The translations under genes were made by a program, and so were the position numbers. DNA of 64,000 bases from Chloroflexota bacterium. Lineage in GTDB: Bacteria > Chloroflexota > Limnocylindria > P2-11E. The stretch covers positions 154,022 through 218,021 of the forward strand of contig JACQAT010000001.1 in NCBI GenBank assembly GCA_016194865.1, in the 5' to 3' direction. The notes under the pieces are model-generated. The model was given only the letters and a program-made list of their open reading frames with translations, did no database searches and was not told the origin of the DNA. Positions 22,222 through 62,574 of this stretch are shown here, piece after piece. Numbering within the stretch: position 1 is the stretch's first letter; every line of letters starts with the position of its first letter.

Positions 22222-22855
22222 TCAGCGCGACCGAGAGCTGACCGCCCTTCGCGCGGCCCGCGCGCCGTGGGAACTGCGGGACGTCGAGCTCGACGATCCG
22301 CGCGCCTCGCCGCCGCGCGCGGAACAGGATCTCCGGGAGCAGGGTCGCCGACCGCGGGCGCGAGCGGAATGGCATCTCGTCCAGCAGAGAGCGCCTGAAT
22401 AGGAATGCCGAGCTGAACTCGCGCAACGGCAGGTCGTACAGCGTCCGCGCCACGAGGTGGAAGCCGCGCGACAGCACCTTGCGCTCCCAGCGATCGGCCC
22501 GGTGCGAGCGAACGCCGACGACGATGTCGGCGTCCGCCGCGCGTGTGAGGAAGCGCGCGAGCTCATCCACGTGCGTCTGCCCGTCGGCCGGCACGAGGAA
22601 GATCCAATCACCGCGCGATCGGCGGAAGCACGTCTCCATCGCGCCGCTGAAGCCGCGGTTGGTCTCGTGATGCACGACCCGCACCTTGGGATGCGACGCC
22701 GCGAGCGTGTCGGCGAGCGCCGCCGTGCCGTCGCGGCTCCCGTCATCGACGATGAGCACCTCGCCGTCGCCCGAGAGCACCGCCCGCGCCTCGTCGACCA
22801 CCGACGCGAGGCTTCCGACCTCGTCGTACGCGGGGATCGCGATCGTCACCTTCAC
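22136..22855 (-). CDS. GT2 glycosyltransferase (polyprenol-phosphate sugar synthase type)
   Basis: Trimmed to GTG 22855. VKVTIAIPAYDEVGSL ... LIVDDGSRDGT ... HHETNRGFSGA, with a C-terminal amphipathic/TM tail. Confidence 0.8.
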   Translation of the reverse strand: MKVTIAIPAYDEVGSLASVVDEARAVLSGDGEVLIVDDGSRDGTAALADTLAASHPKVRVVHHETNRGFSGAMETCFRRSRGDWIFLVPADGQTHVDELARFLTRAADADIVVGVRSHRADRWERKVLSRGFHLVARTLYDLPLREFSSAFLFRRSLLDEMPFRSRPRSATLLPEILFRARRRGARIVELDVPQFPRRAGRAKGGQLSVALITLVELLRLWPLIRLDEARKVKRVATAP

Positions 22856-22933
22856 GGCGGCGAGTGTAGGGATGGACGTGCTCGCGCAGCGGTGACACAG
22901 CGCACGCGGTGGAGGTACTAGTACCGTTCGCGC

Positions 22934-24349
22934 GTGACGATGCCGCCGCTGCTCGTGACGCTCGCCGGGCTCGCGCTGCGGCTCGCCTCGCTCGTCGTGA
23001 TCGCGCAGCCCGGCTACACCGACGCCTATTACTACGCGACGACGGCCGCGCGCCTCGCCCACGGCGAGGGGCTCACCGCCGACTTCCTGTGGGCCCCCCT
23101 CGATGCTCCGACGCTCGCGCCGTTCCCGATCCCGAGCCATCGCTTCTGGATGCCGCTCGCCACGGTCGTGCAGGCGGCCGGCATCGTCGTCCTTGGACCG
23201 CTCCTCGGCGACTTCCGCGCGGGACAGCTCGCGTTGGTGCTCGCCAGCCTCGCGCTGCCGCCGGTCAGCTATGCCCTCGCGCGGACCCTTGGCGCGTCGG
23301 ATCGCGCCGCGATCGTCGCCGCGCTGCTGGTGGCGCTCGGCGGCCTGTTCGCGCCGGCCTGGCCGAGCCTTGACGGCTTCGGGCTCGCGGCGCTCCTCGG
23401 TTCGCTCTTCTTCCTCGCGTTCGATCGCGCGGCTCGTGGGGATGTGCGCGCGGCCGCGCTGTGCGGCTTGTGCGCGGGTCTTCTGTATCTCGCGCGCGCC
23501 GAGGGAGCCCTGTTCGGCGTCCCGCTGCTCGCGCTCGTCGGGCGCCGCGGGGCTCGCCGGGCCGGCCTCGCCGGCAGCGCCATCGCGCTCGCGATCGGGC
23601 TGGCCTGGCTGGCGCGTGGCGCGCTGCTGGGCGCGTCGCCCGACCTGCTCGCGCGCGGCATCCTGCTGCCGCGCTACGACGCCTTCTTCTCATTGACGTC
23701 GCCGACCGGCTCCGTCGATCTCTGGGCGCGCCTCGGCGCGCTGCTCACGAACGCGAGCACCGCGCTCGTCGCGCTCTTCGTGCTGCTCGCACCCGGTACG
23801 GTCCTCGGTGCGCGCGCGCTGTGGTCGCGCGCGGATGTCCGCGCGTTCGTGTGGCTCGCGCTGGGCGTGTACCTCGCGGAGTCGCTGCTCTTCACGCTGC
23901 ACTCGACGCGCGGGTCGTACTTCCACTCGCTCGCGGCATTCTTCCCATTTGCCGTCGCCCTTGCGGTCGTCGGGACCGAGCGCCTGCTCGCCGCGCGCCT
24001 GCGGCGCGTCGCGTTCGCCGGGGCGCTCGCGCTCGCGGCGGTCATGTCCGTCGGCGCGCTGCTCGCGTGGGACGAGAGCTTCAACGTGCCGTACCGCGCG
24101 CGCGCCGCGGCGCTCGGCTCGATCCCGAGCGGCCCGTTCAGCGCGATCGACGCCGCGGCGTGGCGCTGGATCAGCGGCAGGTCCGTCGTCGTGACGCCGT
24201 CCGATGGCCTCGCGAGCGCCCGCTGCCTCGCGACCCGCTACGGCGCGCGCACGCTGGTGCTCGAGCCGGTGCACTTCGCCGCGTACGAGGCGCTCTACCA
24301 AGGCAGCGGCATCATCGCGCTGCCCCTCGAGCCGGGACCCTGCCCATGA
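22934..24349 (+). CDS. polytopic membrane protein, GT-C-like (putative glycosyltransferase)
   Basis: 471 aa, more than 10 hydrophobic segments. The N-terminal loop QPGYTDAYYYATTAARLAHGEGL resembles GT-C first-loop motifs. Confidence 0.5.
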   Translation: MTMPPLLVTLAGLALRLASLVVIAQPGYTDAYYYATTAARLAHGEGLTADFLWAPLDAPTLAPFPIPSHRFWMPLATVVQAAGIVVLGPLLGDFRAGQLALVLASLALPPVSYALARTLGASDRAAIVAALLVALGGLFAPAWPSLDGFGLAALLGSLFFLAFDRAARGDVRAAALCGLCAGLLYLARAEGALFGVPLLALVGRRGARRAGLAGSAIALAIGLAWLARGALLGASPDLLARGILLPRYDAFFSLTSPTGSVDLWARLGALLTNASTALVALFVLLAPGTVLGARALWSRADVRAFVWLALGVYLAESLLFTLHSTRGSYFHSLAAFFPFAVALAVVGTERLLAARLRRVAFAGALALAAVMSVGALLAWDESFNVPYRARAAALGSIPSGPFSAIDAAAWRWISGRSVVVTPSDGLASARCLATRYGARTLVLEPVHFAAYEALYQGSGIIALPLEPGPCP

Positions 24350-25752
24350 GAGCGAGCACGCTCTTCGCGCTGTTCTGCGGTCTCGGCGCCGCCGTCATCG
24401 CGGCGTCGCTGCCCGCGAGCGACTCCGATCTGTTCTGGCACCTGCAGAGCGGCGATCTGATGATCGACCGCGGGGAGCTCCTGCGCACCGACCCGTTCTC
24501 GTACACGCGCTTCGGGACGCCGTACTCGGTCGGCGCGTGGCTCGCGGAGATCGTCTACGCCGGTGTCTTCCGCGCGCTGTCGTGGACCGGCGTCGACCTG
24601 TTGCGCGGACTGCTCATCGGCATCGCCGTGTTCTTCACGGCGCGTGCGGTGCTGCGCCTGCAGCGGCACCCCGCGTGGGCGTTCCCGCCGCTCGTCCTCG
24701 CGATCCTCGTCAGCAAGCCCGACTGGGGCGACCGCCCGCAGCTGTTCACGCTCGCGCTCTTCCCGATCTTCCTCGACGTGCTGCTGCGGACCCGGCTCAC
24801 GGGGAAAACGCGCCAGCTGTGGGCCCTGCCGTTCCTGGTCCTGCTGTGGGCGAACCTGCACGGTGCGTTCGTCATCGGGATCGCCCTGGTGCTCCTCTTC
24901 GCGGTCGAGGCGATCCACGCGCGGCTCGCGATCCAGCGGCCGCTGGCGCTCGTCTCGCTGCTCTGCGTCGTCGCCGGCCTCGCGACGCCGGCGTTCTGGC
25001 GCGCGTACTACGCGGCCGGGTCGTACGCGACGGGCCCGAGCCGTGGTGGCGTCCTCGAGGAGCAGCCGGCCGACGTGCTGAGCGGCGGTGGCGCCGCGTT
25101 CGCGATCCTGCTCGCGCTGGCGCTCGTCCTCGCGCTGCTGCCGAAGCGGCGGGACGCCGCGGTCGCGCTCGACGCACCGCTGCTGTGGTCGCTCCTCATC
25201 GTGCCGTTCACGCTGCTCGGTCTCGCGATCCAGCGGCAGCTGCCATTCGCCGCGTTCATCCTCGCGCCGTACGTCGCGGCCCACCTCCCTGCCGCGTTCG
25301 GCCGCCCGATCGCGCGCGTGCCCCGTCTGCCGCGCAAAGCGGCGCTGCCGATCGCGCTCGTCGCCGTCAGCGCGGCCGTCGCCGCGATGTTCGCGGTCGC
25401 GCCGAGGCAGGCGGATCTCAGCGCGTATCCCGTCGCCGCGGAGCCGATCCTCCGGCGCGAGGCGGGCAACGTCCTCGCCGAATACGACTGGGGCGGCTGG
25501 CTCATCCGCTACGCCCCGAGCGTGCCCACCTTCGTCGACGGACGCGGCGCGACGCTGTTCGCGCCGGACGTGCTCGCTGACTGGGACGACGCCGTGGCGC
25601 TGCGTCCGCCATATCGCGAGATCCTCGACGGCTACGACGTTCGCATCGTGCTCCTGCGGCCGACCCGCCCGCTGGCCATCGCGCTGCGCGAGAGCGGCTG
25701 GAAAGTGCTCGGAGAGGCGCGGGACGCCTGGGTCCTGCTCGAACGCCCGTGA
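24346..25752 (+). CDS. polytopic membrane protein, paralog A (SDLFWHL family; GT-C-like by topology)
   Basis: Trimmed from track ORF 23461..25752 to ATG 24346 (ATGA overlap). Motifs SDSDLFWHLQSG, WANLHGAF, EYDWGGWLIRYAP..TFVDGR. Confidence 0.6.
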   Translation: MRASTLFALFCGLGAAVIAASLPASDSDLFWHLQSGDLMIDRGELLRTDPFSYTRFGTPYSVGAWLAEIVYAGVFRALSWTGVDLLRGLLIGIAVFFTARAVLRLQRHPAWAFPPLVLAILVSKPDWGDRPQLFTLALFPIFLDVLLRTRLTGKTRQLWALPFLVLLWANLHGAFVIGIALVLLFAVEAIHARLAIQRPLALVSLLCVVAGLATPAFWRAYYAAGSYATGPSRGGVLEEQPADVLSGGGAAFAILLALALVLALLPKRRDAAVALDAPLLWSLLIVPFTLLGLAIQRQLPFAAFILAPYVAAHLPAAFGRPIARVPRLPRKAALPIALVAVSAAVAAMFAVAPRQADLSAYPVAAEPILRREAGNVLAEYDWGGWLIRYAPSVPTFVDGRGATLFAPDVLADWDDAVALRPPYREILDGYDVRIVLLRPTRPLAIALRESGWKVLGEARDAWVLLERP

Positions 25753-27134
25753 TGCCGTGGGCCATCGCGCTCCTGACAGGCTCGCTCTTCGCCTTCGCGT
25801 CATCGCGCATGGCCGCACGCGACAGCGATCTGTTCTGGCACCTGGCCACCGGCCGCTTGCTGTTCTCGCGCGGCATCGTCGGCATCGACCAATTCAGCTG
25901 GACCATCGCGAACGCGCCTGTCGCCACCGACCAATGGCTTGGTCAGGCGCTGTGGTACGGCGCGTATCTCGTCGACGGCTGGAGCGGGATCGTCGTGCTG
26001 CGCTCGCTCGCCGTGTTCGCGCTCGTCGCGCTCGTCGTGCACGAGGCCATCGTCCGGCGGCCGGCGCATCCGATCGTCGGTCTCCTCGCCTCGCTCCCCG
26101 CGATCCTGATCGGCCGCTTCATCTGGATCGAGCGGCCGGAGCTGTTCGGCTTCGTGTGCTTCGCCGCGCTGCTGCCGCTGCTGCGCCGCGCGCGCGAGGG
26201 CAGCGGTCGCGCGGCCATCGTGATCATCCCGCTGCTGATCGTGTGGGCGAACGTGCACGGCTCGTTCGCGCTCGGCGTCGGGCTGACGCTGCTCGTGGCG
26301 ATCGAGGGCGCGCTGCGCGACCGAGCGCGCCTGCGGGCATACATCGCGATCGCGATCGGTGCGCTCGTTGCCTGCGTGGCAACACCGGCCGGCCTGTTGA
26401 CGCTCGCGACCCCCGGGTTCCACCTGCTCCATCCGCCGCGCGAGATCCAGGAGTGGGCCGTGCCCGACCCGGCCTCCGCGCCCGGCATCTTCTGGGCGAT
26501 CGCGCTCGCCTTGACGCTCGCGACCGCCATCACAGCAAGAGCGCCGCGTGTCACCGACGCGCTGGTGCTCGTGCCGGTCGCGTTGCTGTCGCTGACCGCG
26601 GCGCGCCACATGCCGCTCCTCGCGATCGCGTGCGCGCCGTATCTCGCGGATCGCGCGCCCGACGCGCTCGCGCTGCTGTTGCGGAGGCCGCCCGTCGCGA
26701 GCCCAAGGCACGCGCGGCGCACACCACCATTCGTAGGGGCGATCGGCATCGCGATCGCTGCCGTGATCCTCGGTGTGAGCGCGGTCACAGCACCGCGCGA
26801 GCCCGACCTGGGCGGCTTCCCGACCGGCGCGCTGGCCGCGCTGCCGCGCGGCGCCGGTCTCTTGAACAATTACGACTGGGGCGGTTGGCTCATTTGGTAC
26901 GCCCCTGATACGCCCGTGTTCATCGACGGAAGGCTCGTCCCGTACATCGATTCGGTGCTGCCGGACTACCGCGCGGTGCTCGGATTGCATCAGGACTGGC
27001 GTGACGTCATCGCGCGCAGACGCGTGCGCGCATTGCTCGTGAGGCCGCGCGACGCGGTCGTGGTCCGCGCGCGCGAGCTGGGGTGGCGCGTGCGCGCGGA
27101 GGGCCCGGAGTTCGTGCTCATCGAGGTGCCGTGA
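25749..27134 (+). CDS. polytopic membrane protein, paralog B (SDLFWHL family; GT-C-like by topology)
   Basis: GTGA overlap with paralog A. Colinear motifs RDSDLFWHLATG, WANVHGSF, NYDWGGWLIWYAP..VFIDGR. Confidence 0.6.
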   Translation: MMPWAIALLTGSLFAFASSRMAARDSDLFWHLATGRLLFSRGIVGIDQFSWTIANAPVATDQWLGQALWYGAYLVDGWSGIVVLRSLAVFALVALVVHEAIVRRPAHPIVGLLASLPAILIGRFIWIERPELFGFVCFAALLPLLRRAREGSGRAAIVIIPLLIVWANVHGSFALGVGLTLLVAIEGALRDRARLRAYIAIAIGALVACVATPAGLLTLATPGFHLLHPPREIQEWAVPDPASAPGIFWAIALALTLATAITARAPRVTDALVLVPVALLSLTAARHMPLLAIACAPYLADRAPDALALLLRRPPVASPRHARRTPPFVGAIGIAIAAVILGVSAVTAPREPDLGGFPTGALAALPRGAGLLNNYDWGGWLIWYAPDTPVFIDGRLVPYIDSVLPDYRAVLGLHQDWRDVIARRRVRALLVRPRDAVVVRARELGWRVRAEGPEFVLIEVP

Positions 27135-28150
27135 GCCGTCGCGCAGCCCGTAACATCCGTGACCTGACGCAAACGACGACCGGGCACCAGACCGAGGAGC
27201 GCAGCGACGATCTCGACGCGCAGTTCGAGGGGATCGTCGATGGGCTGCGTCGCGACGTGCGCCGGCTTCGCACGCAGCTCGAGCGGTTCGCGCGGACCTA
27301 CGAGAAGCGCGCCGAGACCCAGGCCGCGCGCGCACGGCTCGAGCCGGACGACGTCACGCAGCGCGCGCGCCGCCGCCTGCGCCAGCTCCGGCTCGTGGTC
27401 ACCCACATCGAATCGAGCACCTCGTATCTGCTCGGCTCCGGTGTCGCGCCGACCCACGAGGAGAAGGACGAAGCGCACGAGGTGGCGCAGCGCGTCCTCG
27501 ACAGCCTCGAGGCCGAGCGCGAGCGTCTGTACCGCGACGTGCACGACGGTCCGGCGCAGGCGCTCGCCAACGCGATCTTCGAGATCGAATATCTGGAGCG
27601 CATCACCGAGCGCGCGCCGGCCGAGGTCGGAAAGCCGTTGCGCACCGAGCTCGCGCGCCTCAAGACGCAATTCCGCGGTTCGCTCGACGCGGTGCGCGCG
27701 ATGATCTACGACCTGCGCCCGCCGGTCCTCTCCGATCTCGGCCTCGCGGGCGCGATCCGCGACTACGCGTCCGAGTACCAGGCGCGCTACGGGATGACGG
27801 TGAGCTGCCAGCTCGAAGCGGCGGAGACCGGACTCGGGCCGCAACAGGAGCTCGCGGTCTACCGCGTCATGCAGGAGGCGCTCCAGAACGTGCACAAGCA
27901 CGCGAACGCGACGCTCGTGCGTCTCTCGTGGGAGCGCAACGCCGCGCGCTGGCGTCTCAGCTGTCAGGACGATGGCCAGGGCTTCGATCTCGTGAAGGCG
28001 GCGCGCCTCCGGCGATCCGTCGGGCTCTTCGCGATGCGGGAACGGGCCGAGCTGATCGGCGGAACGCTGCAGATCCAATCGGCCCCAGGGCAGGGGACCA
28101 CCGTTACACTCGCCCTTCCCGTGGCTGATATCGATACCGCGCGTGGCTGA
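27131..28150 (+). CDS. cytoplasmic DegS-like sensor histidine kinase (HisKA_3 + HATPase_c)
   Basis: GTG 27131 overlaps the upstream TGA. Coiled-coil N-terminus with no TM. H-box [20 protein letters not shown]-box EALQNVHKHA, G-boxes QDDGQGFD and GLFAMRERAELIGG. Confidence 0.85.
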   Translation: MSRRAARNIRDLTQTTTGHQTEERSDDLDAQFEGIVDGLRRDVRRLRTQLERFARTYEKRAETQAARARLEPDDVTQRARRRLRQLRLVVTHIESSTSYLLGSGVAPTHEEKDEAHEVAQRVLDSLEAERERLYRDVHDGPAQALANAIFEIEYLERITERAPAEVGKPLRTELARLKTQFRGSLDAVRAMIYDLRPPVLSDLGLAGAIRDYASEYQARYGMTVSCQLEAAETGLGPQQELAVYRVMQEALQNVHKHANATLVRLSWERNAARWRLSCQDDGQGFDLVKAARLRRSVGLFAMRERAELIGGTLQIQSAPGQGTTVTLALPVADIDTARG

Positions 28151-28847
28151 GCGCGTGGAGAAGGCGATCCGCATCATTCTCGCGGACGCGAGCCGCCTCA
28201 CGACGCTCGGCATCAAGCAGGTGCTCGAGCGCGAGGCCGACATGGAGCTCCTCATGGCCGTCACCGATGGCGAGGAGGCGGTCGCGCGCACGACCGAGCT
28301 CGAGCCTGACATCCTCATCATCGAGGTCGACCTGCCGAAGCTCGCCGGCGTGAAGGCGACGCAGCGGATCCGCCGCGAGGTCCCGCACGTCGGCGTGATC
28401 GTCCTGACGGCGGACGACCAGGAGCAGACGCTCTTCGACGCGATCCGCGCCGGCGCCGCGGCCTACCTCAACAAGGACTGCGATCCGGCAGAGCTCGTGG
28501 ACACCATCCGCCGCGTGCGCGGCGGCCAGTTCGTCATCAATGAAAAGATCTTCAGCAGGCCGGCCGTGGCGTCCAAGGTGCTCGCCGAGTTCCGCGAGCT
28601 CTCGGTGTACGGACCCGGCTCGTCCCACGTCTTCGCGCCGCTCTCGCCGCGTGAGGTGCAGATCCTCGACAACATCGCGCAGGGCCGTACCAACAAGGAG
28701 GTCGCCTACGCCCTGGCGATCTCCGAGCAGACCGTGAAGAACCACATGTCGAGCATCCTCCGCAAGCTGTCGGTGAACGACCGCACGCAGGCCGTCGTCT
28801 ACGCGATGCGGCAGGGCTGGATCAAGGGCCCCGACCTCCCCACGTAG
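28143..28847 (+). CDS. NarL/LuxR-family response regulator
   Basis: Receiver (IRIILADAS..., ILIIEVDLP, VIVLTAD, YLNKD) plus a LuxR HTH (LSPREVQILDNIAQGRTNKEVAYALAISEQTVKNHMSSILRKL). The start overlaps the end of the kinase gene. Confidence 0.85.
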   Translation: MAERVEKAIRIILADASRLTTLGIKQVLEREADMELLMAVTDGEEAVARTTELEPDILIIEVDLPKLAGVKATQRIRREVPHVGVIVLTADDQEQTLFDAIRAGAAAYLNKDCDPAELVDTIRRVRGGQFVINEKIFSRPAVASKVLAEFRELSVYGPGSSHVFAPLSPREVQILDNIAQGRTNKEVAYALAISEQTVKNHMSSILRKLSVNDRTQAVVYAMRQGWIKGPDLPT

Positions 28848-28864
28848 CCGTAGTCTTTCCGCTG

Positions 28865-29851
28865 ATGTCCGAAGAGGAGACCAGGCTCCAGGCGGAGATG
28901 CGCGAGCTCGACATGCTCCTCGAGTCCACGCAGGTCGAGGTCAATCGGCTGAAGACGCGCGAGGAGCAGGCGAAGGCGAAGGTCGAAGAGGCCCGCAAGG
29001 CTCCGCAGAACTTCCAGCGCGAGGAGATCTTCAGCGCGACCGACGAGCACAACGCCGCGATGGGCCGGCGCATGACCATGGAGGCGGAGCTGTCGTCCCT
29101 CGGCTCGCGCCGCAGGCTGCTCGACCGCGTGCAGGGGGCGTTCGAGCGTTCGCGTGTCCCGCAGGGCGTGGCCGCGACGCCTGCCGCGCCGGCCGCGCTG
29201 GACGAGAAGCGCGTGCTGCAGGCGGTCGTCGACACGCAGGAGGACGAGCGCAAGCGCATCGCGCGCCAGGTCCACGACGGGCCGGCGCAGGCGATGGCCA
29301 ACGTCATCCTGCAGGCGGAGATCAGCGAGCGCCTGTACTCGATCGACCCCGCGCGCTCGAAGGTCGAGCTCGACGCGCTGCGCAAGATGGTGAACAAGAC
29401 CCTGCAGGAGCTGCGCGGGTTCATCTTCGAGCTGCGCCCGATGACCCTCGACGACCTCGGGCTCGTCCCGACACTGCGCCGCTACATCCAGACGCTCATC
29501 GACAAGCACGGCATCAAGTTCGACTTCTCGAGCACCGGCCGCGACCGGCGCCTCTCGCCCGACGACGAGGTGGCCGTGTTCCGCCTCATCCAGGATTCGC
29601 TCGTCGAGCGGATCGAGAAGGCGGGCGCGAAGGACCTCGTGCTCGGCATGACCTGGAAGGAAGGGGCGCTCCAGATCCGCCTGCAGTCGGACGGCAGGGA
29701 GCTGCCACCGGACGGCGAGCTCGCCTCAGGGCTTCGCAGGAGCGAGCGCCTCGAGCTGCTCAAAGGCGAGGCGCACTCGGAGACGCGCGATGGGAAGGTC
29801 ACGCTCGAGATCACTTTGCCCGTCAAGGCCGCGGCCGAGGTGATCTCCTGA
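28865..29851 (+). CDS. DegS-like histidine-kinase paralog with a degenerate ATP-binding domain
   Basis: Coiled-coil N-terminus. Intact H-box [21 protein letters not shown]. The N-box reads [11 protein letters not shown] (Asn and His lost) and G1 reads QSDGRELP instead of DxGxG. Confidence 0.75.
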
Positions 29852-47573: not shown

Positions 47574-47783
47574 CTAGCTCTCCAGCATCCAGGGGTTGTC
47601 GCCGCGCACCACGTCCTCGACCTCCCGTGGGCCGAGGTGGCCGGGCGCCCAGACGGTCATGCTCTTGGAGAGCGGCAGGCGGGTGATGTAGGTGACCTTG
47701 CCGAACCGGTAGCCGTGCTGGAACAGGAACGGCTTGCCGTCGATCTCGAGGAGCTGACGGCGGTCGGTCGATGTGGCGGGCAT
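47574..47783 (-). CDS. hypothetical 69-aa protein
   Basis: G/C-rich third positions. Lies between the peptide ORF and dtd on the same strand. I recognise no family. Confidence 0.5.
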   Translation of the reverse strand: MPATSTDRRQLLEIDGKPFLFQHGYRFGKVTYITRLPLSKSMTVWAPGHLGPREVEDVVRGDNPWMLES

Positions 47784-47819: not shown

Positions 47820-47987
47820 CTACGGCTGGCCCGGGTCTCCACCACCGTCATCGGGGTCGCTATCGACGAGCTCGACGCCCGCCCGCTCCGGTCCTGCCTG
47901 GGAATCCGCCCGCGCGTGCGTCGGGAGCACGAGCGCGAGCAGGAGCGCGGTCAAGAACAGCGTGACCAGCCGGGAACGCAGTTTCAT
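47820..47987 (-). CDS. 55-aa secreted pro-peptide candidate (signal peptide + acidic tail ending DGGGDPGQP)
   Basis: MKLRSRLVTLFLTALLLALVLPTHARA|DSQAGPERAGVELVDSDPDDGGGDPGQP. It is the C-terminal tail of track ORF 47820..48989. GAGGGG lies upstream of the ATG. G/C-rich third positions. Divergent from the HTH-TPR regulator. Confidence 0.55.
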   Translation of the reverse strand: MKLRSRLVTLFLTALLLALVLPTHARADSQAGPERAGVELVDSDPDDGGGDPGQP

Positions 47988-48068: not shown

Positions 48069-48096
48069 GGTCCTTTCGGTCGTCAGACAAAGGACC
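48069..48096. promoter_or_regulatory. inverted repeat GGTCCTTT-N12-AAAGGACC upstream of HTH-TPR regulator 1
   Basis: Perfect 8-bp arms at 48069-48076 and 48089-48096, in the 126-bp divergent intergenic region and 18 nt upstream of the regulator start. Confidence 0.4.
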
Positions 48097-48113: not shown

Positions 48114-49421
48114 GTGCCGAGCATTACGAAGGCCCCCGACAAGCCAACGCTCCTCGGCGAGCGCGTCCGGATCGCACGCCACGCGCTCGGACTGTCCCAG
48201 TCGCAGCTTGCCGGGGCGGAGCTGACGAAGGGGTTCATCAGCCAGATCGAGTCCGGCCTGGTGCGCCCGTCGGTCCGATCGCTGCAGATCATCGCGAACC
48301 GCCTTGGCAAGCCGTTCGACTACTTCATCGGCGACGACCCGGCGGTCAGCAGGAAGCGCCTCGCCTTCCACCGCCTGGCCGCCGAAGCCGCCATGACCCG
48401 CCAGGACTGGCCCGCGCTGCGCAGCGAGATCGAGGCCGCGCTCCGGGAGTCGCCGGACAAGCGCGAGCGCTGCCGGCTCGTCGGCATGCTCTCGGCGGCC
48501 GATCTCGGTGAGGGCGATCGCGAGATGACGTTCACGCGGATCGCCGAAGCGCTTTCGGGTCTGGACCTCGATGCGGACGCCGCGGATATCGCGCAGCTGC
48601 TGTACCGAAAGGGCCGCGCCTACGCGCAGCTCGAGCAGCTCGTCGCCGCCACCGACGCGTACGAGGCCTCGCGCGCGATGGTCGAGAAGTACGAGATCAA
48701 CGACACGCGGCTGCGTTCGCGTCTGCTGGTCGCGCTCGGGACGATGTACCGCCGCCTCAACCGGACCGCGAAGGCCATGGCCACCTATGAGGCGGCGCTC
48801 GCGCAGGCGTCGCGCGCCTCCGAGCAGGAGATGGCGGCCCGTAGCTACATGGGCGTCGCCGCCACGCTCTACGACGCGGGCGAGTACGACTCCGCGATCT
48901 CGAACTACCGTCGCGCGCTCGCGCTCTGGCAGCACCTCGCCGACTCCGACTTCGAGCTGAACGCCATGCAGTCGCTCGCCGGGGTGCACTTCGAGCAGGG
49001 CGATCTCGTCGCGGCGCGGGAGATGGCCACCCGCTGCCTCTCGCGAGCGGAGAGCCTGGGTGACCGCCGCTGGGCTGCCGTGGCGCGCGTCGAGCTAGCA
49101 CGAGGCGAGCTGGCCGCCGGTCACATCCAGGAGGCGCTGTCACTGGCCGACCCAGCGGAACGGGTCCTCGCTGAGCTGGATGATCCCCAGCAGCAGGCGA
49201 GCGCGCTGCGCATCCTCGGCGCCGCGCACGAAGCTGCCGGCGACCATGGCGCCGCCGACCGCGCGTATCTCGCCTCCATCGAGCTGCTCACCGGCATCGA
49301 CCACTTCGCGTCACGGAGCGTCACGTCCGCGGAGTACGCGCAGCATCTTCGCGCACGGGGCGAGATCGACAAGGCTTTCTCGATGCTGGAGCTCGCGCGG
49401 GGTGCCGCCGCCCGCCACTAG
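48114..49421 (+). CDS. Cro/C1 (XRE)-type HTH + TPR-domain transcriptional regulator, copy 1
   Basis: Trimmed from track ORF 47379..49421 to GTG 48114 (GGGAGG RBS). HTH: LGERVRIARHALGLSQSQLAG...FISQIESGLVRPSVRSLQIIANRLGKP. About 350 aa of TPR-like repeats follow. Confidence 0.8.
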   Translation: MPSITKAPDKPTLLGERVRIARHALGLSQSQLAGAELTKGFISQIESGLVRPSVRSLQIIANRLGKPFDYFIGDDPAVSRKRLAFHRLAAEAAMTRQDWPALRSEIEAALRESPDKRERCRLVGMLSAADLGEGDREMTFTRIAEALSGLDLDADAADIAQLLYRKGRAYAQLEQLVAATDAYEASRAMVEKYEINDTRLRSRLLVALGTMYRRLNRTAKAMATYEAALAQASRASEQEMAARSYMGVAATLYDAGEYDSAISNYRRALALWQHLADSDFELNAMQSLAGVHFEQGDLVAAREMATRCLSRAESLGDRRWAAVARVELARGELAAGHIQEALSLADPAERVLAELDDPQQQASALRILGAAHEAAGDHGAADRAYLASIELLTGIDHFASRSVTSAEYAQHLRARGEIDKAFSMLELARGAAARH

Positions 49422-56372: not shown

Positions 56373-57527
56373 ATGCCCGCCGCTATTCCGCGGGTCTTGA
56401 TCGCGCCGCAATCGTTCAAGGGGAGCCTCGATGCCGTCGCGGTCGCCGGCGCGATCGCGCGCGGTCTTCGTCGCGTCTGGCCGAACGCGGTCTGCGATGA
56501 GCTGCCTCTCGCTGACGGAGGCGAGGGCACCGTGCGCGCGCTCGTCCGCGCGACGAAGGGGAAGCTGCGGCGCACGCTCGTTCACGATCCGCTCGGCCGC
56601 GAGATCGAGGCGGAGTGGGGGATCCTCGGTGACGGCACGACCGCCGTCGTCGAGATGGCCGCCGCGAGCGGGCTGCCGTTGCTCCTGCCGAGCGAGCGCG
56701 ATCCACGGATCACGTCGACGCGCGGCACCGGCGAGCTCATCCTCGCGGCGGCGGTGAGCGGTGCGCATCGGATCGTGATCGGCATCGGCGGCAGCGCCAC
56801 GAATGACGGCGGAGCGGGCATGGCGCGCGCGCTCGGCTATCGATTCCTCGATGCCGCCGGCGACGAGCTTCCCGAAGGAGGGGCCGCCCTCGCTCGTCTC
56901 CATCGCATCGACGGCCAGACCGATACGCGCCTCATCCGTCCGGCCATCGAGGTCGCCTGCGATGTCCGCAATCCGCTTCTCGGTCCCGAGGGCGCGTCGG
57001 CCGTCTATGGGCCGCAGAAAGGTGCGACGCCCGAGATGGTCGCGGAGCTCGACAGGGCGCTCGAGCGCTACGCCGGCGTGGTCGAGCGCTTCGTTGGTCG
57101 CAACGTGCGCGACGTCCCTGGCGCGGGCGCGGCGGGTGGGCTCGGGGCGGGACTCATCGCGTTCCTGGATGCGCATCTTCGATCCGGCGCGGAGCTCGTC
57201 CTCGAAGCGACCGGATTCGACGAACGGCTCGCGCACGCCGACCTCGTCATCACCGGCGAAGGGCGTCTGGATCAGCAGAGCGCGTACGGCAAGCTCACGC
57301 AGGCGGTGACGAAGCGCGCCGCCGCGAAGGGCAGGCCCGTCATCGCGATCGTCGGCGGGACCGGCGAGGGGCACGAGGCGCTCTTCGAACAGGGACTCAC
57401 CGCGATCGAGCCGACGAGCGACGGACCGATGTCCCTTGGCGATGCCATGGCGCACGCGGACGCGCTCATCCAAGCGGCGGCGGAGCGCGTCGCGCGCATC
57501 GTGCAGGTTGGCCGCCAACTCGGTTAG
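56373..57527 (+). CDS. glxK: glycerate kinase
   Basis: Trimmed to ATG 56373 (GTG 56370 is also possible). [48 protein letters not shown]. Confidence 0.85.
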
Positions 57528-57537
57528 CGTTGACGCG

Positions 57538-58527
57538 ATGAAAGAACCCTCTGCCACCGAGCGTGCCTCGAGCCTCGACCTGGTCCGCATCACCGAAGCT
57601 GCCGCCATCGCGGCCGCGCATCTCATGGGTCACGGCGACAATCGCGCCGCGGACAAGGCGGCCGTCGAAGCCATGCGCTCGACCATGGACGAGGTCGCGT
57701 TCAACGGGACGATCGTCATCGGCGAGGGCGAGCGCGACGAAGCGCCGATGCTCTACATCGGCGAGAAGGTCGGCCGCGGCGTCGGGCCCGAAGTCCACAT
57801 CGCCGTCGATCCGCTCGAGGGCACGAACCTCGTCGCGCAGGGCCGCGCCAACGCCACCGCCGTCATGGCCGTCTCCGAGCCGGGCGGGCTGCTCCACGCG
57901 CCGGACACGTACATGGAGAAGCTCGTCGTCGGCGCGCCCGCGAAGGGCAAGGTCGACCTCGACCGCCCGGTCGCCGAGAACCTCAAGATCATCGCGGACT
58001 CGCTCGGCGGACGCGATGTGCGCGACCTGACCGTCATCATCCTGGCGCGGCCGCGACACGAGAAGCTCATCAACGACGTGCGCGCCGCCGGCGCGCGCAT
58101 CAAGCTGATCGACGACGGCGATCTCACCGCCGCCATCTCCGTCGCCGTCGCCGGCACAGCCGTCCACGCGGTCATGGGCACCGGCGGCGCGCCCGAGGGT
58201 GTGCTCGCCGCCGCCGCGCTCCGCTGCCTCGGCGCCGAGATCCTCGGCCGGCTCCGTTTCCGCAACGACGGCGAACGCGAGCGCGCGCGCAAGATGGGCG
58301 TCATCGACGAGACGCGGGTCTACCGCACCGAGGACCTCGCGAGCGGCAAGGACATCCGCTTCATCGCCACCGGTGTGACCGACGGGGAGCTGCTCCAGGG
58401 CGTCCGCTTCTTCGCCCACGGCATCCGGACGCACTCGATCCTGGCCGACTCGATCCTGGGCAAGCTGCGCTTCATCGACACCCAGCACTTCGAGGATCCG
58501 GCCAAGCCGCCCATCATCCGGCTCTAG
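57538..58527 (+). CDS. glpX: class II fructose-1,6-bisphosphatase
   Basis: Trimmed to ATG 57538. [50 protein letters not shown]. Confidence 0.9.
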
Positions 58528-58537
58528 CACTTATTTA

Positions 58538-58566
58538 TTGACAGGCGCCGAGGGCCGTCCTAACGT
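58538..58566 (+). promoter_or_regulatory. candidate promoter TTGACA-17-TAACGT, positioned to give a leaderless mRNA for HTH-TPR regulator 2
   Basis: TTGACA at 58538-58543 and TAACGT at 58561-58566. The GTG start at 58573 is 7 nt after the -10, the same geometry as the hspR promoter. An AT-rich patch (cacttatttattgaca) precedes it. Confidence 0.45.
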
Positions 58567-58572
58567 GCCGCC

Positions 58573-59922
58573 GTGCCTCAGCAGACGCGCACCAGGCGGC
58601 CCATTCCCGACTCCACGACCGTCAAAGAGCTCGGTGCGCGCATCCGCAGGGCGCGCACAGAGGCAGGGCTGAGCCAGGGCGCGCTCGCGGCCCCCAACTT
58701 CACGCGCGCCTATGTGAGTGCGATCGAGCTGGGGAAGATCCGGCCCTCCATGAAGGCGCTCGAGTACCTCGCGAACCGACTGGGGAAGCCGACATCGTTC
58801 TTCCTGTCGGACGAGGCCGAGGAGTCAGAGCGGAAGCAGCGGGAATTCGCGATCGCTGAGCTTTCCAGTCGTTTGACGCGCGCACGCGCGGCGGAGGCTC
58901 TCTCGAGTGCTGAAGAGCTGCTTGCGGCGGCCAAGTCCCATCGCGAGATAGCGACCCTGAGGATGTACCGAGCGACCGCGCTGAACTTCCTCCAGAGGGG
59001 CCGTGAAGCGCTGCCTGATCTCGAAGCGTCCGAGCGTCTTGCGAAGCAATTGGGTGACGAGCGACTTTCCGCGCAAGTGAACTATCAGCGAGCCATCGGA
59101 TACCGACTCGTCGGCGATCCACTCAGGGCCAAGCACCTACTCGAGGAGCATCTAGCGAAGGTGGAAGCTGCACCGGTGATCGACGCCCTCATGCGAATGA
59201 AGCTCTTGAAGGATCTCGGCGCTATCGCGTACGACCTTGGACAGCACGAAGCCGCGAGTGCTTATTACTTTTCGGCGCTCGAATGGTCGAAGGACGTGAG
59301 CGATATGGCCGCCCTAGCGACGATCTATCAGGGCTTGGCGCTGTCCTATCGAGCTCGCGGTGATCTGGATGCCGCAACCACGTATCTCCAAAGAGCAATC
59401 GGAGCGAGTGAGGCCGCCAACGATCTGACGCAGATAGCCATGCTCTACAACGCCATGGCGTTGTTTGCCGCGGAGCGTGGGCACCTGCAATCGGCGCGTA
59501 CGTACTCAGACAAAGCGATCGAGCTCGCACGCGTCACTGGTCCAGCGGCCTTCGTGCCCCACTACGTGACTACGAAGGCCGAGTGCGCCGCGAAGGCCGG
59601 GATGTGGCAAGACGCTGCGGGGTTTGCGGCGCAGGCGCTCGCTCTGGCGACGGAACACCAGAACGTGCGCGCTGCCGCCGCTGCCCGATTGGTCCTGTCT
59701 GACGCTGCGAGCCATCTCGGCCAAGTCGACGAAGGCGTTCGCCATCTAAAGGAGGCTGCGACGGCCTATGAGGAATTGAATGCGTTTGCTGAGCTCGGGG
59801 AAGTGTTCCAGCGTCTAAGCCGACTGGCTGAGACACGCGGCCAGTCTGACGAAGCCCGCCATTACCTCATCAAGGCGTACGAAGCAACGCGAAAGCCCAG
59901 TGGGCTCATGGAAAGGAAATGA
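58573..59922 (+). CDS. Cro/C1 (XRE)-type HTH + TPR-domain transcriptional regulator, copy 2
   Basis: HTH: LGARIRRARTEAGLSQGALAA...YVSAIELGKIRPSMKALEYLANRLGKP, colinear with copy 1. TPR-like repeats run to the C-terminus. Confidence 0.8.
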   Translation: MPQQTRTRRPIPDSTTVKELGARIRRARTEAGLSQGALAAPNFTRAYVSAIELGKIRPSMKALEYLANRLGKPTSFFLSDEAEESERKQREFAIAELSSRLTRARAAEALSSAEELLAAAKSHREIATLRMYRATALNFLQRGREALPDLEASERLAKQLGDERLSAQVNYQRAIGYRLVGDPLRAKHLLEEHLAKVEAAPVIDALMRMKLLKDLGAIAYDLGQHEAASAYYFSALEWSKDVSDMAALATIYQGLALSYRARGDLDAATTYLQRAIGASEAANDLTQIAMLYNAMALFAAERGHLQSARTYSDKAIELARVTGPAAFVPHYVTTKAECAAKAGMWQDAAGFAAQALALATEHQNVRAAAAARLVLSDAASHLGQVDEGVRHLKEAATAYEELNAFAELGEVFQRLSRLAETRGQSDEARHYLIKAYEATRKPSGLMERK

Positions 59923-60032
59923 TGCGGTACCTCATGCTCGTCCTCGCCCTCATCGTCGCGCTACAAGTCGCCACGCCTACCCTCGTCACAGAGGTTGACT
60001 CGTGGGGAGGGGACCCGCCAACGGCCGGCTAG
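59919..60032 (+). CDS. 37-aa secreted pro-peptide candidate (not in the supplied ORF track)
   Basis: ATGATG spans the regulator TGA (59920-59922). Reads MMRYLMLVLALIVALQVA|TPTLVTEVDSWGGDPPTAG, with TAG at 60030-60032. AAGGA lies upstream. The tail shares VDS.. and GGDP with the 47820..47987 peptide. Confidence 0.5.
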   Translation: MMRYLMLVLALIVALQVATPTLVTEVDSWGGDPPTAG

Positions 60033-60880
60033 CCGCCTCCGACCTGCCGCTCCGTAGCGGCGAGCACGTTCCGCAACAGGAGCGCGGTCGTCACCGTGCC
60101 GAGCCCACCAGGAACAGGGCTCAGTGCGTCGGCGACCGCGCTCACGCTCTCGACATCGACATCCCCAACGATCCCATTCGGCGTCACATTGATGCCCGCA
60201 TCGATCACGACGACGCCCTTCGACACCATGTCACCGCGCAGGAAGCCCGCGCGACCGGTGGCGATGATGATCACCTGCGCGTCACGCGTGTGCCGCGCGA
60301 GATCGACCGTCTTGCTGTGCGCGATCGTGACGGTCGCGTCCTTGAGCAGGAGGAGATTCGCGGCAGGGCGCCCGATCACGGTGCTCCGGCCAACGATCAA
60401 CGCGCGCGTGCCGCGCAGCGGCACCTCGTAGAACTTCAGAAGCTCCAGCGACGCCTCGGCGGTCGACGGCACGAAACGCGGACGGCCGTCGGCCAGGAAG
60501 CCGACGTTGAACGGATGCATGCCCTCGACGTCCTTCGCGACGGGGATGTGGTCGACGATGTGTCCCTCGTCGAGCTTGCCCGGTAACGGCGTGAGCAAGA
60601 GGACGCCGTGCACGCTCACATCGGCGCCGGCCCGCTCGAGTGCAGCGATGAGCTCGCTCTCGGTGGTGTCCCGCGCGAGCGCGGCCTCGACGACATGCAC
60701 GCCCAGCGCTTGACCCGCCTTCGCGAGCCGCCCCGCGTAGGCGTTCCCCGCCGGATCGGCGCCGACGGACACGATGCGCAGGGTGGGCTGTGTGCCACGC
60801 GCTTTGAGCGCCTCGCTACGCGCCGCGAGATCGGCCGTGATGCGCTCCGCGAGCGGTCGCCCGTGAAGGAGTCTCGTCAT
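60029..60880 (-). CDS. folD: bifunctional methylene-THF dehydrogenase / methenyl-THF cyclohydrolase
   Basis: Typical FolD sequence (LRIVSVGADPAGNAYAG ... GVLLLTPLP ... VIGRPAANLL ... TPVPGGLGTVT). Confidence 0.95.
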   Translation of the reverse strand: MTRLLHGRPLAERITADLAARSEALKARGTQPTLRIVSVGADPAGNAYAGRLAKAGQALGVHVVEAALARDTTESELIAALERAGADVSVHGVLLLTPLPGKLDEGHIVDHIPVAKDVEGMHPFNVGFLADGRPRFVPSTAEASLELLKFYEVPLRGTRALIVGRSTVIGRPAANLLLLKDATVTIAHSKTVDLARHTRDAQVIIIATGRAGFLRGDMVSKGVVVIDAGINVTPNGIVGDVDVESVSAVADALSPVPGGLGTVTTALLLRNVLAATERQVGGG

Positions 60881-61554: not shown

Positions 61555-61665
61555 CGATCCGTCATCGAGAGCGGCTGAGGGAACGGCCCGTCGAAGCCGC
61601 GGCAACCAGCGGAGTCCCGCTTCGGTGCCAATTCCGGCCCTGAGTCAGGGAAAGATGAGAGAGCA
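61555..61665 (+). promoter_or_regulatory. SAM-I (S-box) riboswitch
   Basis: tcATCgAGAGcGGctGAGGGAacGGCCCgtcGAAgCCgcGGCAACCagcg...cgcttcGGTGCCAATTCCggcc...GAAAGATGAgag matches the S-box core blocks in order. It lies 6 nt upstream of the metF TTG start. Confidence 0.85.
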
Positions 61666-61671
61666 GAGGTC

Positions 61672-62574
61672 TTGTTCCGGTTGAGCACATTCCCGTCATT
61701 GGTCCGGTCCGGCGCGTTCGTCGTGACGGCCGAGATCAATCCCCCGAAGAGCGCAGACGGCGACGTCGTGACACGACGCGCGAGCGCGCTCCGTGGCTGC
61801 GTCGATGCCGCGAACGTGACCGACAGCAACCGCGCGGTGGCCGCGATGTCGTCCATCCCGGCGGCGCTGCTCGTGCGCGATGCCGGCGTCACGCCGATCG
61901 TGCAGATGACGGGCCGGGATCGGAATCGCATCGCGCTCCAGGGAGACCTCCTCGGCGCGGCCGCTCTCGGGCTCGACACGTTCCTGTGCATGAGCGGCGA
62001 CGATCCGAGGGTGGGCAATCACCCGGATGCCGTCCACGTGAAGGATCTCGACGGCATCGGGCTGCTGAAGATGGCCAGCGGAATGCGCGACCGTGGCGTC
62101 TTCCTGTCCGGAGACGCGATCACCAAGCCGCCGCAGCTGTTCCTCGGCGGCACGGCCTCGCCATTCGGGGAGCCGACGAGCCGAGACGTGGATCGCACGA
62201 TCGAGAAGCTCGAGGCCGGCGCTGATTTCCTGCAGACGCAACCGGTGTTCGACATCGTCACATTCAGCGCCTGGCTCAGCGAGGTGCGCAAGCGCGCGAA
62301 GGACCCGGCCATCCTCGCGGGCGTGCTCGTCCTGCGCTCCGCGGATCAGGCGAAACGTCTCGCGAAGGTGCCCGGCGTCACGATCCCCGACGCGACGGTC
62401 GAGCGGATGCGTGGCGCGCGGGACGCGGAGCAGGAAGGGATCGCCATCGCGGTCGAGCTCGTCCAGGAGCTCCGCGCGTTGCCGGGCGTGCACGGGGTGC
62501 ACATCTACGCGATCGAATGGCCAGAGGCGGTGGGCCTCGTCGTCCAGCGAAGCGGATTGAGGGAGAAGTCATGA
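61672..62574 (+). CDS. metF: methylenetetrahydrofolate reductase
   Basis: TTG start. VTAEINPPKS ... IVQMTGRDRN ... FLCMSGDDP ... FLQTQPVFD. Confidence 0.85.
   Translation: MFRLSTFPSLVRSGAFVVTAEINPPKSADGDVVTRRASALRGCVDAANVTDSNRAVAAMSSIPAALLVRDAGVTPIVQMTGRDRNRIALQGDLLGAAALGLDTFLCMSGDDPRVGNHPDAVHVKDLDGIGLLKMASGMRDRGVFLSGDAITKPPQLFLGGTASPFGEPTSRDVDRTIEKLEAGADFLQTQPVFDIVTFSAWLSEVRKRAKDPAILAGVLVLRSADQAKRLAKVPGVTIPDATVERMRGARDAEQEGIAIAVELVQELRALPGVHGVHIYAIEWPEAVGLVVQRSGLREKS

Follow-up and report, generated by a model that had tools for sequence, protein, structure and literature searches.

The DNA analysed here, referred to as the window, is a 64,000-nucleotide stretch of contig JACQAT010000001.1 (assembly GCA_016194865.1) from a Chloroflexota bacterium of the Limnocylindria, with a G+C content of 69.3%. 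At positions 58573-60032, the gene of a 449-aa regulator, composed of a helix-turn-helix (HTH) domain and tetratricopeptide repeats (TPR), is followed by an overlapping open reading frame (ORF) of 37 codons. We put at roughly 0.6 the probability that the two form an RRNPP-type cassette of receptor and propeptide, located on the chromosome and comparable to PlcR/PapR and NprR/NprX, in Limnocylindria-like Chloroflexi, the peptide being the ligand of the regulator. A paralogous cassette, called copy 1 as opposed to the present copy 2, is found in the same window. The coordinates of all features are collected in Table 1.

The HTH-TPR regulator and its orthologs

An earlier reading of the DNA letters, hereafter the original prediction, had assigned to the 449-aa protein a Cro/C1-type HTH followed by TPR-like helical repeats, and this domain plan was borne out by the ORF, the Pfam domains and an AlphaFold model, which agree with one another. 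Besides the XRE-type HTH, the Pfam families TPR_12, TPR_8 and TPR_MalT were matched at residues ~205-434 (E-value of 9e-18 for TPR_12). The model, computed with AlphaFold2 on 31 orthologs, reached a predicted local distance difference test (pLDDT) of 87.6 and a predicted template modelling score (pTM) of 0.71; in its fold, an HTH of five helices and a linker helix precede 17 others, i.e., about 8.5 TPR-like pairs.

More than 100 full-length orthologs, with 44-57% identity and lengths of 427-471 aa, were found under the names Chloroflexi/Chloroflexota, Candidatus Limnocylindria or Limnocylindrales, and the residues that are invariant among them include N138 and N293. The GTG start codon is backed by a conserved N-terminus, MPxxRxRxRRPAPVS, and by the position of the promoter. 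Some orthologs of both paralogs carry the annotation “quorum sensing regulator NprR” from the Joint Genome Institute (JGI) pipeline. When the regulator was used as query in a scan of genome contigs, a single remote relative was returned and synteny was not recoverable in that way. The G+C content at third codon positions (GC3) of the regulator gene is 0.72, as against 0.82-0.96 in other genes of the window, despite its vertically conserved position.

A conserved small ORF behind the regulator

The stop codon of the regulator and the start of the small ORF overlap by 4 nt (ATGA), and the TAG of the small ORF shares 4 nt with the stop of the convergent folD gene. The Shine-Dalgarno (SD)-like element stands closer to the start than the about 5-10 nt seen in orthologs. 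The original prediction had placed a 37-codon ORF at the ATGATG directly 3′ of the regulator and had noted its G/C-biased third positions; the coordinates were confirmed, the ORF is conserved beside orthologs, and its GC3 of 0.82 lies inside the range of the genes here (0.82-0.96 for the others).

For the comparison, 80 metagenome loci were fetched with the ortholog profile and the DNA 3′ of each regulator was inspected. An ORF of 29-41 codons, starting -3 to +5 nt from the regulator stop, was found at 20 distinct loci, 3 more being cut by a contig end. As 3 very distant positional orthologs also carry a peptide ORF, this amounts to 23 divergent intact loci plus the 3 contig-cut ones. Once these distant orthologs are included, the start offsets of all intact peptide ORFs span -3 to +12 nt and the peptides range from 26 to 41 aa. 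The ORF is retained beside regulators of 33-58% identity, its holders being the whole window clade (clade A, 17 of 17 loci, 3 of them contig-cut), five loci of a second clade, L043 and the three distant orthologs. The main refutation named in the original prediction, i.e., a small ORF missing or disrupted beside orthologous regulators, thus turned out favourably for the window clade.

GGAG, GGAGG or GGGAG is present about 5-10 nt upstream of the start in all 20 aligned peptide ORFs. The same alignment shows no variation at the G and the PP of the tail and hardly any in the N-terminal M-K/R-R, and most copies end in G-x-P-P-x-(CC/WG/AG)-stop. Examples of the family, in which the slash marks the putative cleavage site, are MNMKRLVLVLALLAVFMSTGSFA/AADEDERDWGGPPPICC (site context ...GSFA/AADEDERDWGGPPPICC), MMKRLAMILVLLATTLSLSGAALA/TPEESDRDWWGPPPTCC and MKRILVLVLAFFAMSADVIA/SLDAMGGTPPGCC; MKRIALFLVPLVVGAAGLALRMGVVGGLPPTCC and MRFLVGAMNIALMIQLASSRFLSEPWGGQPPVWG are further members. 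The distant orthologs, with 33-35% receptor identity, hold a different peptide in this position, preceded by an SD-like GGAGG. With its textbook cleavage site, this peptide is predicted to release 8 residues, as in MKWMYAILLFASAARAFA/DLAPGMVG (context ...AARAFA/DLAPGMVG), (V)IWLRLAVFAFFVSAARLFA/DICPGVVG and MTLLRLTAFALFATASRLFA/DIAPGLIG. Tail types therefore differ by lineage, from PPxCC, PPxWG and PPTAG to the 8-aa D(L/I)xPGxxG of the most distant loci, and this variation resembles that of pherotypes. Judged by alignment, the conserved yet lineage-variable part of the peptide is its carboxy terminus.

Pairwise ratios of nonsynonymous to synonymous divergence (dN/dS, Nei-Gojobori) were 0.14-0.81 in the 12 comparisons for which a ratio was computed (12/12), synonymous divergence among the pairs being often saturated, with dS up to >1. 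In two comparisons with L002, dN (0.26 and 0.36) stood far below dS (1.57 and 1.40). On this measure the small ORF is under purifying selection. Moreover, 13 family members had already been called by gene callers in a collection of 5.8 billion proteins, all unnamed or “hypothetical” and devoid of Pfam domains; the window peptide itself (identical 37 aa) is among them, with a single call in a Logan assembly (P0247). Searches of Pfam and NCBIfam assigned the peptides to no family and gave only weak matches over the signal-peptide regions, PhrK among them. Overall, the small ORF is very likely a true gene for an exported peptide, expressed together with the regulator.

Export signal of the peptide

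Signal peptides were assessed with a heuristic of our own, based on a positively charged n-region, a 10-aa hydrophobic window with a Kyte-Doolittle (KD) value ≥ 2 and the -3/-1 rule. It was passed by 22 of the 24 family and paralog-partner peptides, including that of the window. Of the 192 small ORFs of 28-60 aa taken as a control from all six frames of the window, just 2 passed, the window peptide being one of the two, and this exceeds what chance would produce. By this heuristic, the peptide looks like a Sec substrate. The basic n-region and hydrophobic core described in the original prediction were retained. Its QVA/T cleavage site has Q at -3, and LIVA/LQVA is the candidate site preferred by the heuristic. 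Among the family, the longer members (37-41 aa) show canonical AxA sites followed by acidic pro-regions. Candidate cognate C-terminal tails of the window peptide are SWGGDPPTAG and TEVDSWGGDPPTAG.

Promoter and operator-like box

The operon promoter was recognised by ortholog comparison. Its layout, TTGAC(A/G)-N17/18-TA(N)CGT, then 6-8 nt, then (A/G)TGCC, was retrieved by pattern search at 81 of 82 orthologous loci, and promoter spacings were tabulated for 80 loci; the ortholog consensus reads cTGTCGATT-N5-TTGAC(A/G)-N17(18)-TA(N)CGT-N6-8-(A/G)TGCC. Since the regulator start codon lies 6 nt 3′ of the -10 in the window, and 6-8 nt in orthologs, the mRNA for the regulator and the peptide is probably leaderless. 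A generic promoter scan of the window did not flag this promoter because its -10 fits only 3 of the 6 consensus positions.

In most orthologs (e.g., L032, L057 and L092), a near-invariant TGTCGATT box stands 5 nt upstream of the -35, the TGTCGA reaching about 2 bits per position over 71 distinct promoter sequences. Box and -35 together make an imperfect inverted repeat (TGTCGA vs. TGTCAA), which is a plausible operator for an HTH dimer and would hence imply autoregulation. Further copies of TGTCGATT-N5-TTGACR were not found in the window beyond chance, and no regulon could be proposed.

Relation of the regulator to RRNPP receptors

A profile restricted to residues 1-205, built so as to drop the generic TPR signal, was compared with 177,635 PDB sequences. 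PlcR (2qfc) came first with an E-value of 1.6e-9, in a colinear alignment of query residues 18-202 with PlcR residues 4-190 that covers the HTH, the linker and the first TPRs; the next matches were isolated HTH domains with E ≥ 3e-4. The HTH of the regulator and that of PlcR have in common the motif S-x-IE-x-G-x-x-x-PSM-x-x-L-x-x-IA-x-KL. PlcR 2qfc was also found with the full-length profile (E 1.1e-8), in one colinear stretch between query residues 19-261 and chain residues 4-247, along with NprR (4gpk/5dbk, E about 4e-8) and Rap proteins (E 2e-6 to 1e-3). The likeness to RRNPP receptors that the original prediction had read from the domain plan thus holds at sequence level, through a PlcR-specific similarity and the NprR and Rap matches. 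Among viral structures (BFVD, searched with Foldseek), generic TPR and Sel1 proteins only were returned and there was no AimR-like signal.

The paralogous cassette

Copy 1 comprises a regulator recognised by tblastn, with 29% identity to that of copy 2, and a divergently oriented gene for a 55-aa secreted peptide. Orthologs of copy 1 show 52-62% identity and always the same gene order, in which the small ORF, the gene of a 68-aa protein and dtd point away from the regulator, PolX and acylphosphatase genes. Each of the six positional homologs of the copy-1 peptide (L087, L088, L089, L090, L094 and L095) combines a signal peptide and an AxA-type site with a tail rich in P, G and D, and in 5 of the 6 a short tail motif is doubled: FPGDPGF x2, IQPEDPG(T/F)S x2, SVPADPGY(P/E)D x2, VPEDPPPV x2 and PGDG(G/A)W x2. 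That two paralogous receptor families each have a secreted-peptide neighbour, as far as sequence can tell, is hard to explain as chance adjacency.

Other features were noted at this locus. The doubled P/D/G-rich motif recalls multi-copy pheromone precursors. The conserved 68-69-aa protein, whose gene is always flanked by the copy-1 peptide gene and dtd, all on one strand, has no Pfam match and the consensus MPATSTDRRQL.EIDGK.F.FQHGYRFGKVTYITRLPL..S.TV..PGHL...EV..VVRGDNPWMLE; it may be part of the copy-1 cassette. A perfect inverted repeat of 8 bp, GGTCCTTT-N12-AAAGGACC, lies just 5′ of the copy-1 regulator start and could be an operator or a hairpin of the 5′ untranslated region.

Gene neighbourhood

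In the window, copy 2 lies between glpX, upstream, and the convergent folD, after which comes a gene for an FTCD_C cyclodeaminase; the order glxK-glpX-regulator-folD-FTCD_C-metF is conserved in orthologous loci. An S-adenosylmethionine (SAM-I) riboswitch (Rfam RF00162, 84.9 bits), also conserved in orthologous loci, directly precedes the methylenetetrahydrofolate reductase gene (MTHFR, metF). At some of the orthologous loci where the peptide gene is absent, the regulator is separated from folD by an element of ~130 nt with inverted ends, GCGCGGGTGGCACGGG...GGGACAGGACCCGCGC, whose orientation varies from genome to genome; the window does not contain it. The 150-215-nt spacers replacing the peptide gene gave no Rfam match at the gathering threshold.

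Elsewhere in the window, a prolyl-oligopeptidase-family protein (Peptidase_S9) with a beta-propeller N-terminus is encoded. This peptidase is proline-specific and the candidate signals are built on Pro-Pro or Asp-Pro-Gly; at a distance of 56 kb no link is implied. Three large ORFs without a Pfam match at E ≤ 1e-5 adjoin a two-component system made of a HisKA_3 kinase, a LuxR-type response regulator and a second HisKA_3 protein.

Table 1. Features of the two cassettes and of their surroundings (positions in the window, unless a locus is named).
Feature	Position	Strand	Remarks
Operon promoter, copy 2	-35 TTGACA 58538-58543; -10-like TAACGT 58561-58566	+	17-nt spacer; ortholog comparison
Receptor/regulator gene, copy 2	58573..59922	+	449 aa; GTG start; TGA 59920-59922 inside ATGATG
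XRE-type HTH	about 58627-58800	+	aa 19-76; Pfam HTH_31/HTH_3
TPR-like repeats, about 8.5	about 58885-59889	+	aa ~105-439; linker helix between HTH and repeats
SD-like element, purine-rich	59910..59917	+	GGAAAGGA; in regulator 3′ end, 1-4 nt before two candidate ATGs
Propeptide gene, copy 2	59919..60032 (start 59919 or 59922)	+	37 codons; reads MMRYLMLVLALIVALQVATPTLVTEVDSWGGDPPTAG
Propeptide parts	conserved tail 60003-60029	+	n-region MMR; hydrophobic core L5-A18; tail W-G-G-D-P-P-T-A-G
glpX	57436-58527		upstream of regulator
folD	60029..60880	-	convergent
Copy-1 regulator gene	48114..49421	+	HTH-TPR, 435 aa; tblastn
Copy-1 secreted-peptide gene	47820..47987	-	55 aa, divergent; MKLRSRLVTLFLTALLLALVLPTHARA/DSQAGPERAGVELVDSDPDDGGGDPGQP
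68-69-aa conserved protein	47574-47783	-	orthologous loci: L087 666-872, L088 1946-2152, L089 1901-2107, L090 1926-2132
Inverted repeat, 8 bp	48069-48096		just 5′ of copy-1 regulator start
SAM-I riboswitch	61559-61661	+	RF00162
MTHFR gene (metF)	61672-62574		
Peptidase_S9 gene	2017-3849	+	
Three large ORFs	20965-27134 and 27083-29851		418, 471 and 461 aa
~130-nt element	L056 3861-3994; L039 3872-4006; L081 1682-1813 (reverse)		about 15 other clade-B loci

A candidate peptide-signalling cassette

Both genes of copy 2 are real, conserved together and arranged for co-expression, and the tail of the peptide is conserved and lineage-variable. What is inferred is that the peptide is exported, where it is cut, which part of it is the mature signal, that it is taken up again and bound, and in which direction and on which targets the regulator acts. 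In the mechanism that we propose, one promoter would give a probably leaderless mRNA for both genes, from which the cytoplasmic HTH-TPR receptor and the 37-aa pro-peptide would be made, with translation coupled at the receptor stop codon. The pro-peptide would be exported by Sec, cut by signal peptidase and perhaps trimmed further, releasing a short C-terminal peptide that contains ...WGGDPPTAG. At high concentration, this peptide would be re-imported and would bind the concave face of the receptor TPR superhelix, altering its DNA binding. The likely site in most orthologs is the TGTCGA-N7-TTGACA inverted repeat over the operon's own -35, which would create a feedback loop.

This proposal can be compared with the signature on which RRNPP_detector relies, namely a small propeptide, a Sec signal, a receptor of 250-500 aa, TPRs and direct adjacency (PMC10075063). 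The cassette of the window presents all five features: a propeptide of 37 aa (10-100 aa in the signature), a Sec signal as judged by our heuristic, a receptor of 449 aa, TPRs and adjacent genes. The large-scale screen made with that tool covered only Firmicutes and viruses (PMC10075063). The host, a Limnocylindria-like Chloroflexi represented by a metagenome-assembled genome (MAG), is outside the range described for RRNPP systems, i.e., Firmicutes/Bacillota with their plasmids and phages, this range being no mechanistic requirement. Full-text literature searches returned nothing relevant linking RRNPP with Chloroflexi/Chloroflexota, or Limnocylindria with quorum sensing, in line with the new lineage for the mechanism put forward in the original prediction.

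Several observations weigh against the peptide being the ligand of an RRNPP-type receptor. With the full-length profile, generic TPR proteins (LGN/Pins, kinesin light chain (KLC), designed CTPR) dominate the matches among PDB sequences, and no RNPP-specific Pfam or NCBIfam model is among the matches of the regulator. The Foldseek check suggested in the original prediction did find RRNPP structures in the PDB, ranked below generic TPR proteins: LGN/Pins came first (E about 2e-9, TM-score 0.5-0.6), PlcR 28th and Rap proteins from the 29th rank onward (phage phi3T Rap, RapF, RapI and pLS20 Rap), with E about 1e-7 and TM-scores of 0.5-0.64 for PlcR and the Rap proteins alike. The modelled fold is thus compatible with an RRNPP receptor without discriminating it from generic TPR proteins. 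The window's own promoter box is degenerate (TAGCACTT, with TAGCAC as left half). The shortest members of the peptide family (29-33 aa) could be uncleaved membrane anchors. As for an importer, a scan of 20 of the larger window ORFs revealed no Opp-type permease. Finally, glpX and folD are housekeeping genes in synteny, and adjacency alone is weak evidence of functional coupling.

The distribution of the peptide gene weighs in the same direction. Clustering of 79 regulators by the unweighted pair group method with arithmetic mean (UPGMA), annotated with the state of the downstream ORF, gave three groups. The peptide ORF is intact throughout the 17 loci of the window clade. In the second clade, intact genes occur beside remnants and beside loci where the gene is gone altogether and the regulator abuts folD; the remnants include MKGGSPPGCC (L037/L040), VKRLLIGCC (L026), RRATFDVLGGSPSGCC (L022) and a frameshifted MKR...CC (L023). 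In the third, of about 37 loci, there is no peptide gene near the regulator, which either abuts folD or is separated from it by the conserved ~130-nt element; no other secreted small ORF recurs near these “orphan” regulators. About 55 more distant orthologs have kept the regulator while the peptide gene was lost or reduced to a remnant. Since the regulator, with invariant residues such as N138 and N293, and the promoter box are retained in all three clades, the peptide gene is ancestral and has been lost repeatedly. Decay of the peptide beside an intact regulator and promoter box also means that the regulator has a function for which no peptide gene at its own locus is needed; orphan receptors known from other systems behave likewise. 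This loss is a caveat for a strict “cognate pair” reading.

The alternative that survives best, in our view an unlikely one, is that the exported peptide exerts its effect extracellularly or through a membrane sensor, as an effector, a Cys redox or metal peptide or a RiPP-like (ribosomally synthesised and post-translationally modified) product, the regulator at most controlling its expression. The exported tail is the conserved part, and most members end in Cys-Cys, suggesting a disulfide, metal binding or modification; the survival of the regulator without the peptide gene in many lineages and the missing importer among the ORFs scanned point the same way. On the other hand, whole clades swap CC for WG, AG or xxG, which fits a specificity tail better than a catalytic or metal site, and the conserved neighbourhood glxK-glpX-regulator-peptide-folD-FTCD_C holds no modifying enzymes, transporters or sensor kinases. 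Moreover, tight coupling to a PlcR-like HTH-TPR protein, repeated at a paralogous locus, is the RRNPP pattern.

Less probable still is a small single-pass membrane protein, an uncleaved anchor with a non-signalling or a tethering or modulating role, co-inherited through conserved gene order. The 29-33-aa members leave 8-14 residues past the hydrophobic segment, with an ambiguous predicted cleavage, and the surrounding synteny is that of conserved housekeeping genes. By contrast, the 37-41-aa members have the AxA sites and acidic pro-regions of exported peptides, conservation peaks at the extreme C-terminal tail rather than in the hydrophobic segment, and the copy-1 partners are, by sequence, clearly cleavable secreted peptides with doubled motifs. 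Starts overlapping the regulator stop likewise argue for co-expression over mere neighbourhood.

That the ORF is instead a chance frame in a GC-rich convergent spacer, its GGNGGN...CCNCCN forming a hairpin or terminator between the regulator and folD, was rejected and is largely refuted already: the GG..PP codons are self-complementary and allow 5-bp stems such as GGAGG-TCTT-CCTCC (L003) and GGCGG-ACTT-CCGCC (L005), but loci in which another codon stands for the first Gly, ruling out a stem, still have PP.CC (L009 FGSPP, L014 YGIPP, L050 SGSPP), the residues survive a broken stem in the window, L007 and L008, a terminator scan detected nothing, and start codon, SD, frame and hydrophobic profile are conserved, with dN/dS below 1 and 13 members called by independent gene callers.

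The receptor-propeptide reading has a stronger form, which we advance tentatively, as quite possible although short of even odds: the Limnocylindria pairs would be true, vertically inherited homologs of the Firmicutes RRNPP systems, with a new G-x-P-P-x-Cys-Cys class of pheromones and a tandem-DPG class. Vertical inheritance is suggested by the glpX-regulator-peptide-folD position, which is kept down to 33% receptor identity. If true, peptide quorum sensing through cytoplasmic receptors would be older and wider than Bacillota. According to the structural phylogeny of the RRNPPA family (PMC12700828), the choice between an ancestor with nine TPRs and one with five still awaits an outgroup; these pairs would be a candidate for rooting the family. 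A conserved chromosomal pair in soil and freshwater Chloroflexi would extend such signalling to another phylum of abundant uncultured bacteria and would supply short, easily synthesised candidate signals, e.g., DLAPGMVG or ...WGGPPPICC. The repeated loss of the peptide gene with the receptor kept would, besides, offer a natural series for the origin of “orphan” receptors.

Comparison with known systems

NprR-NprX of the Bacillus cereus group is similar in many respects. Both systems have a receptor of about 420-450 aa made of an XRE-type HTH and about nine TPRs, and a small propeptide gene with a Sec signal immediately 3′ on the same strand; NprX is co-transcribed with its receptor, as the gene arrangement suggests here. 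In NprX, activity resides in a short fragment of the exported portion, as is proposed for the present peptide. The differences are the host (Chloroflexi, 69% GC), an unrelated peptide tail (G-x-P-P-x-CC/WG/AG), the 4-nt stop/start overlap and a conserved housekeeping context without protease or sporulation genes. Sequence similarity to NprR is restricted to the central TPRs.

PlcR, from the PlcR-PapR system of Bacillus cereus/thuringiensis, is the best specific sequence match of the regulator, and papR likewise lies just downstream. The ligand is the C-terminal heptapeptide of PapR, and the palindromic box recognised by PlcR lies close to the promoter of its own gene. In most orthologs here, an inverted repeat overlaps the -35; the box sequence differs and autoregulation is putative. 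PlcR is also shorter, with 285 aa and 5 TPRs, and the tail motif of its peptide is unrelated to that of the present family.

The divergent receptor and peptide genes of copy 1, with an intergenic region of about 125 nt, are reminiscent of Rgg-SHP. However, SHPs lack a Sec signal and leave the cell through PptAB (PMC10075063), whereas the copy-1 peptides start with classical signal peptides, and their tails are longer, rich in P, G and D and often marked by a doubled motif. The TPR domains of LGN/Pins and kinesin light chain, which gave the best structural matches, hold extended peptides within the concave groove of a superhelix of 8 repeats. Those proteins are eukaryotic and have neither an HTH nor a paired peptide gene, so that the likeness is that of the generic TPR fold. 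Lastly, in contrast to NprR-NprX and PlcR-PapR, the cassette described here is embedded in a vertically inherited housekeeping context and not in a mobile or virulence locus.

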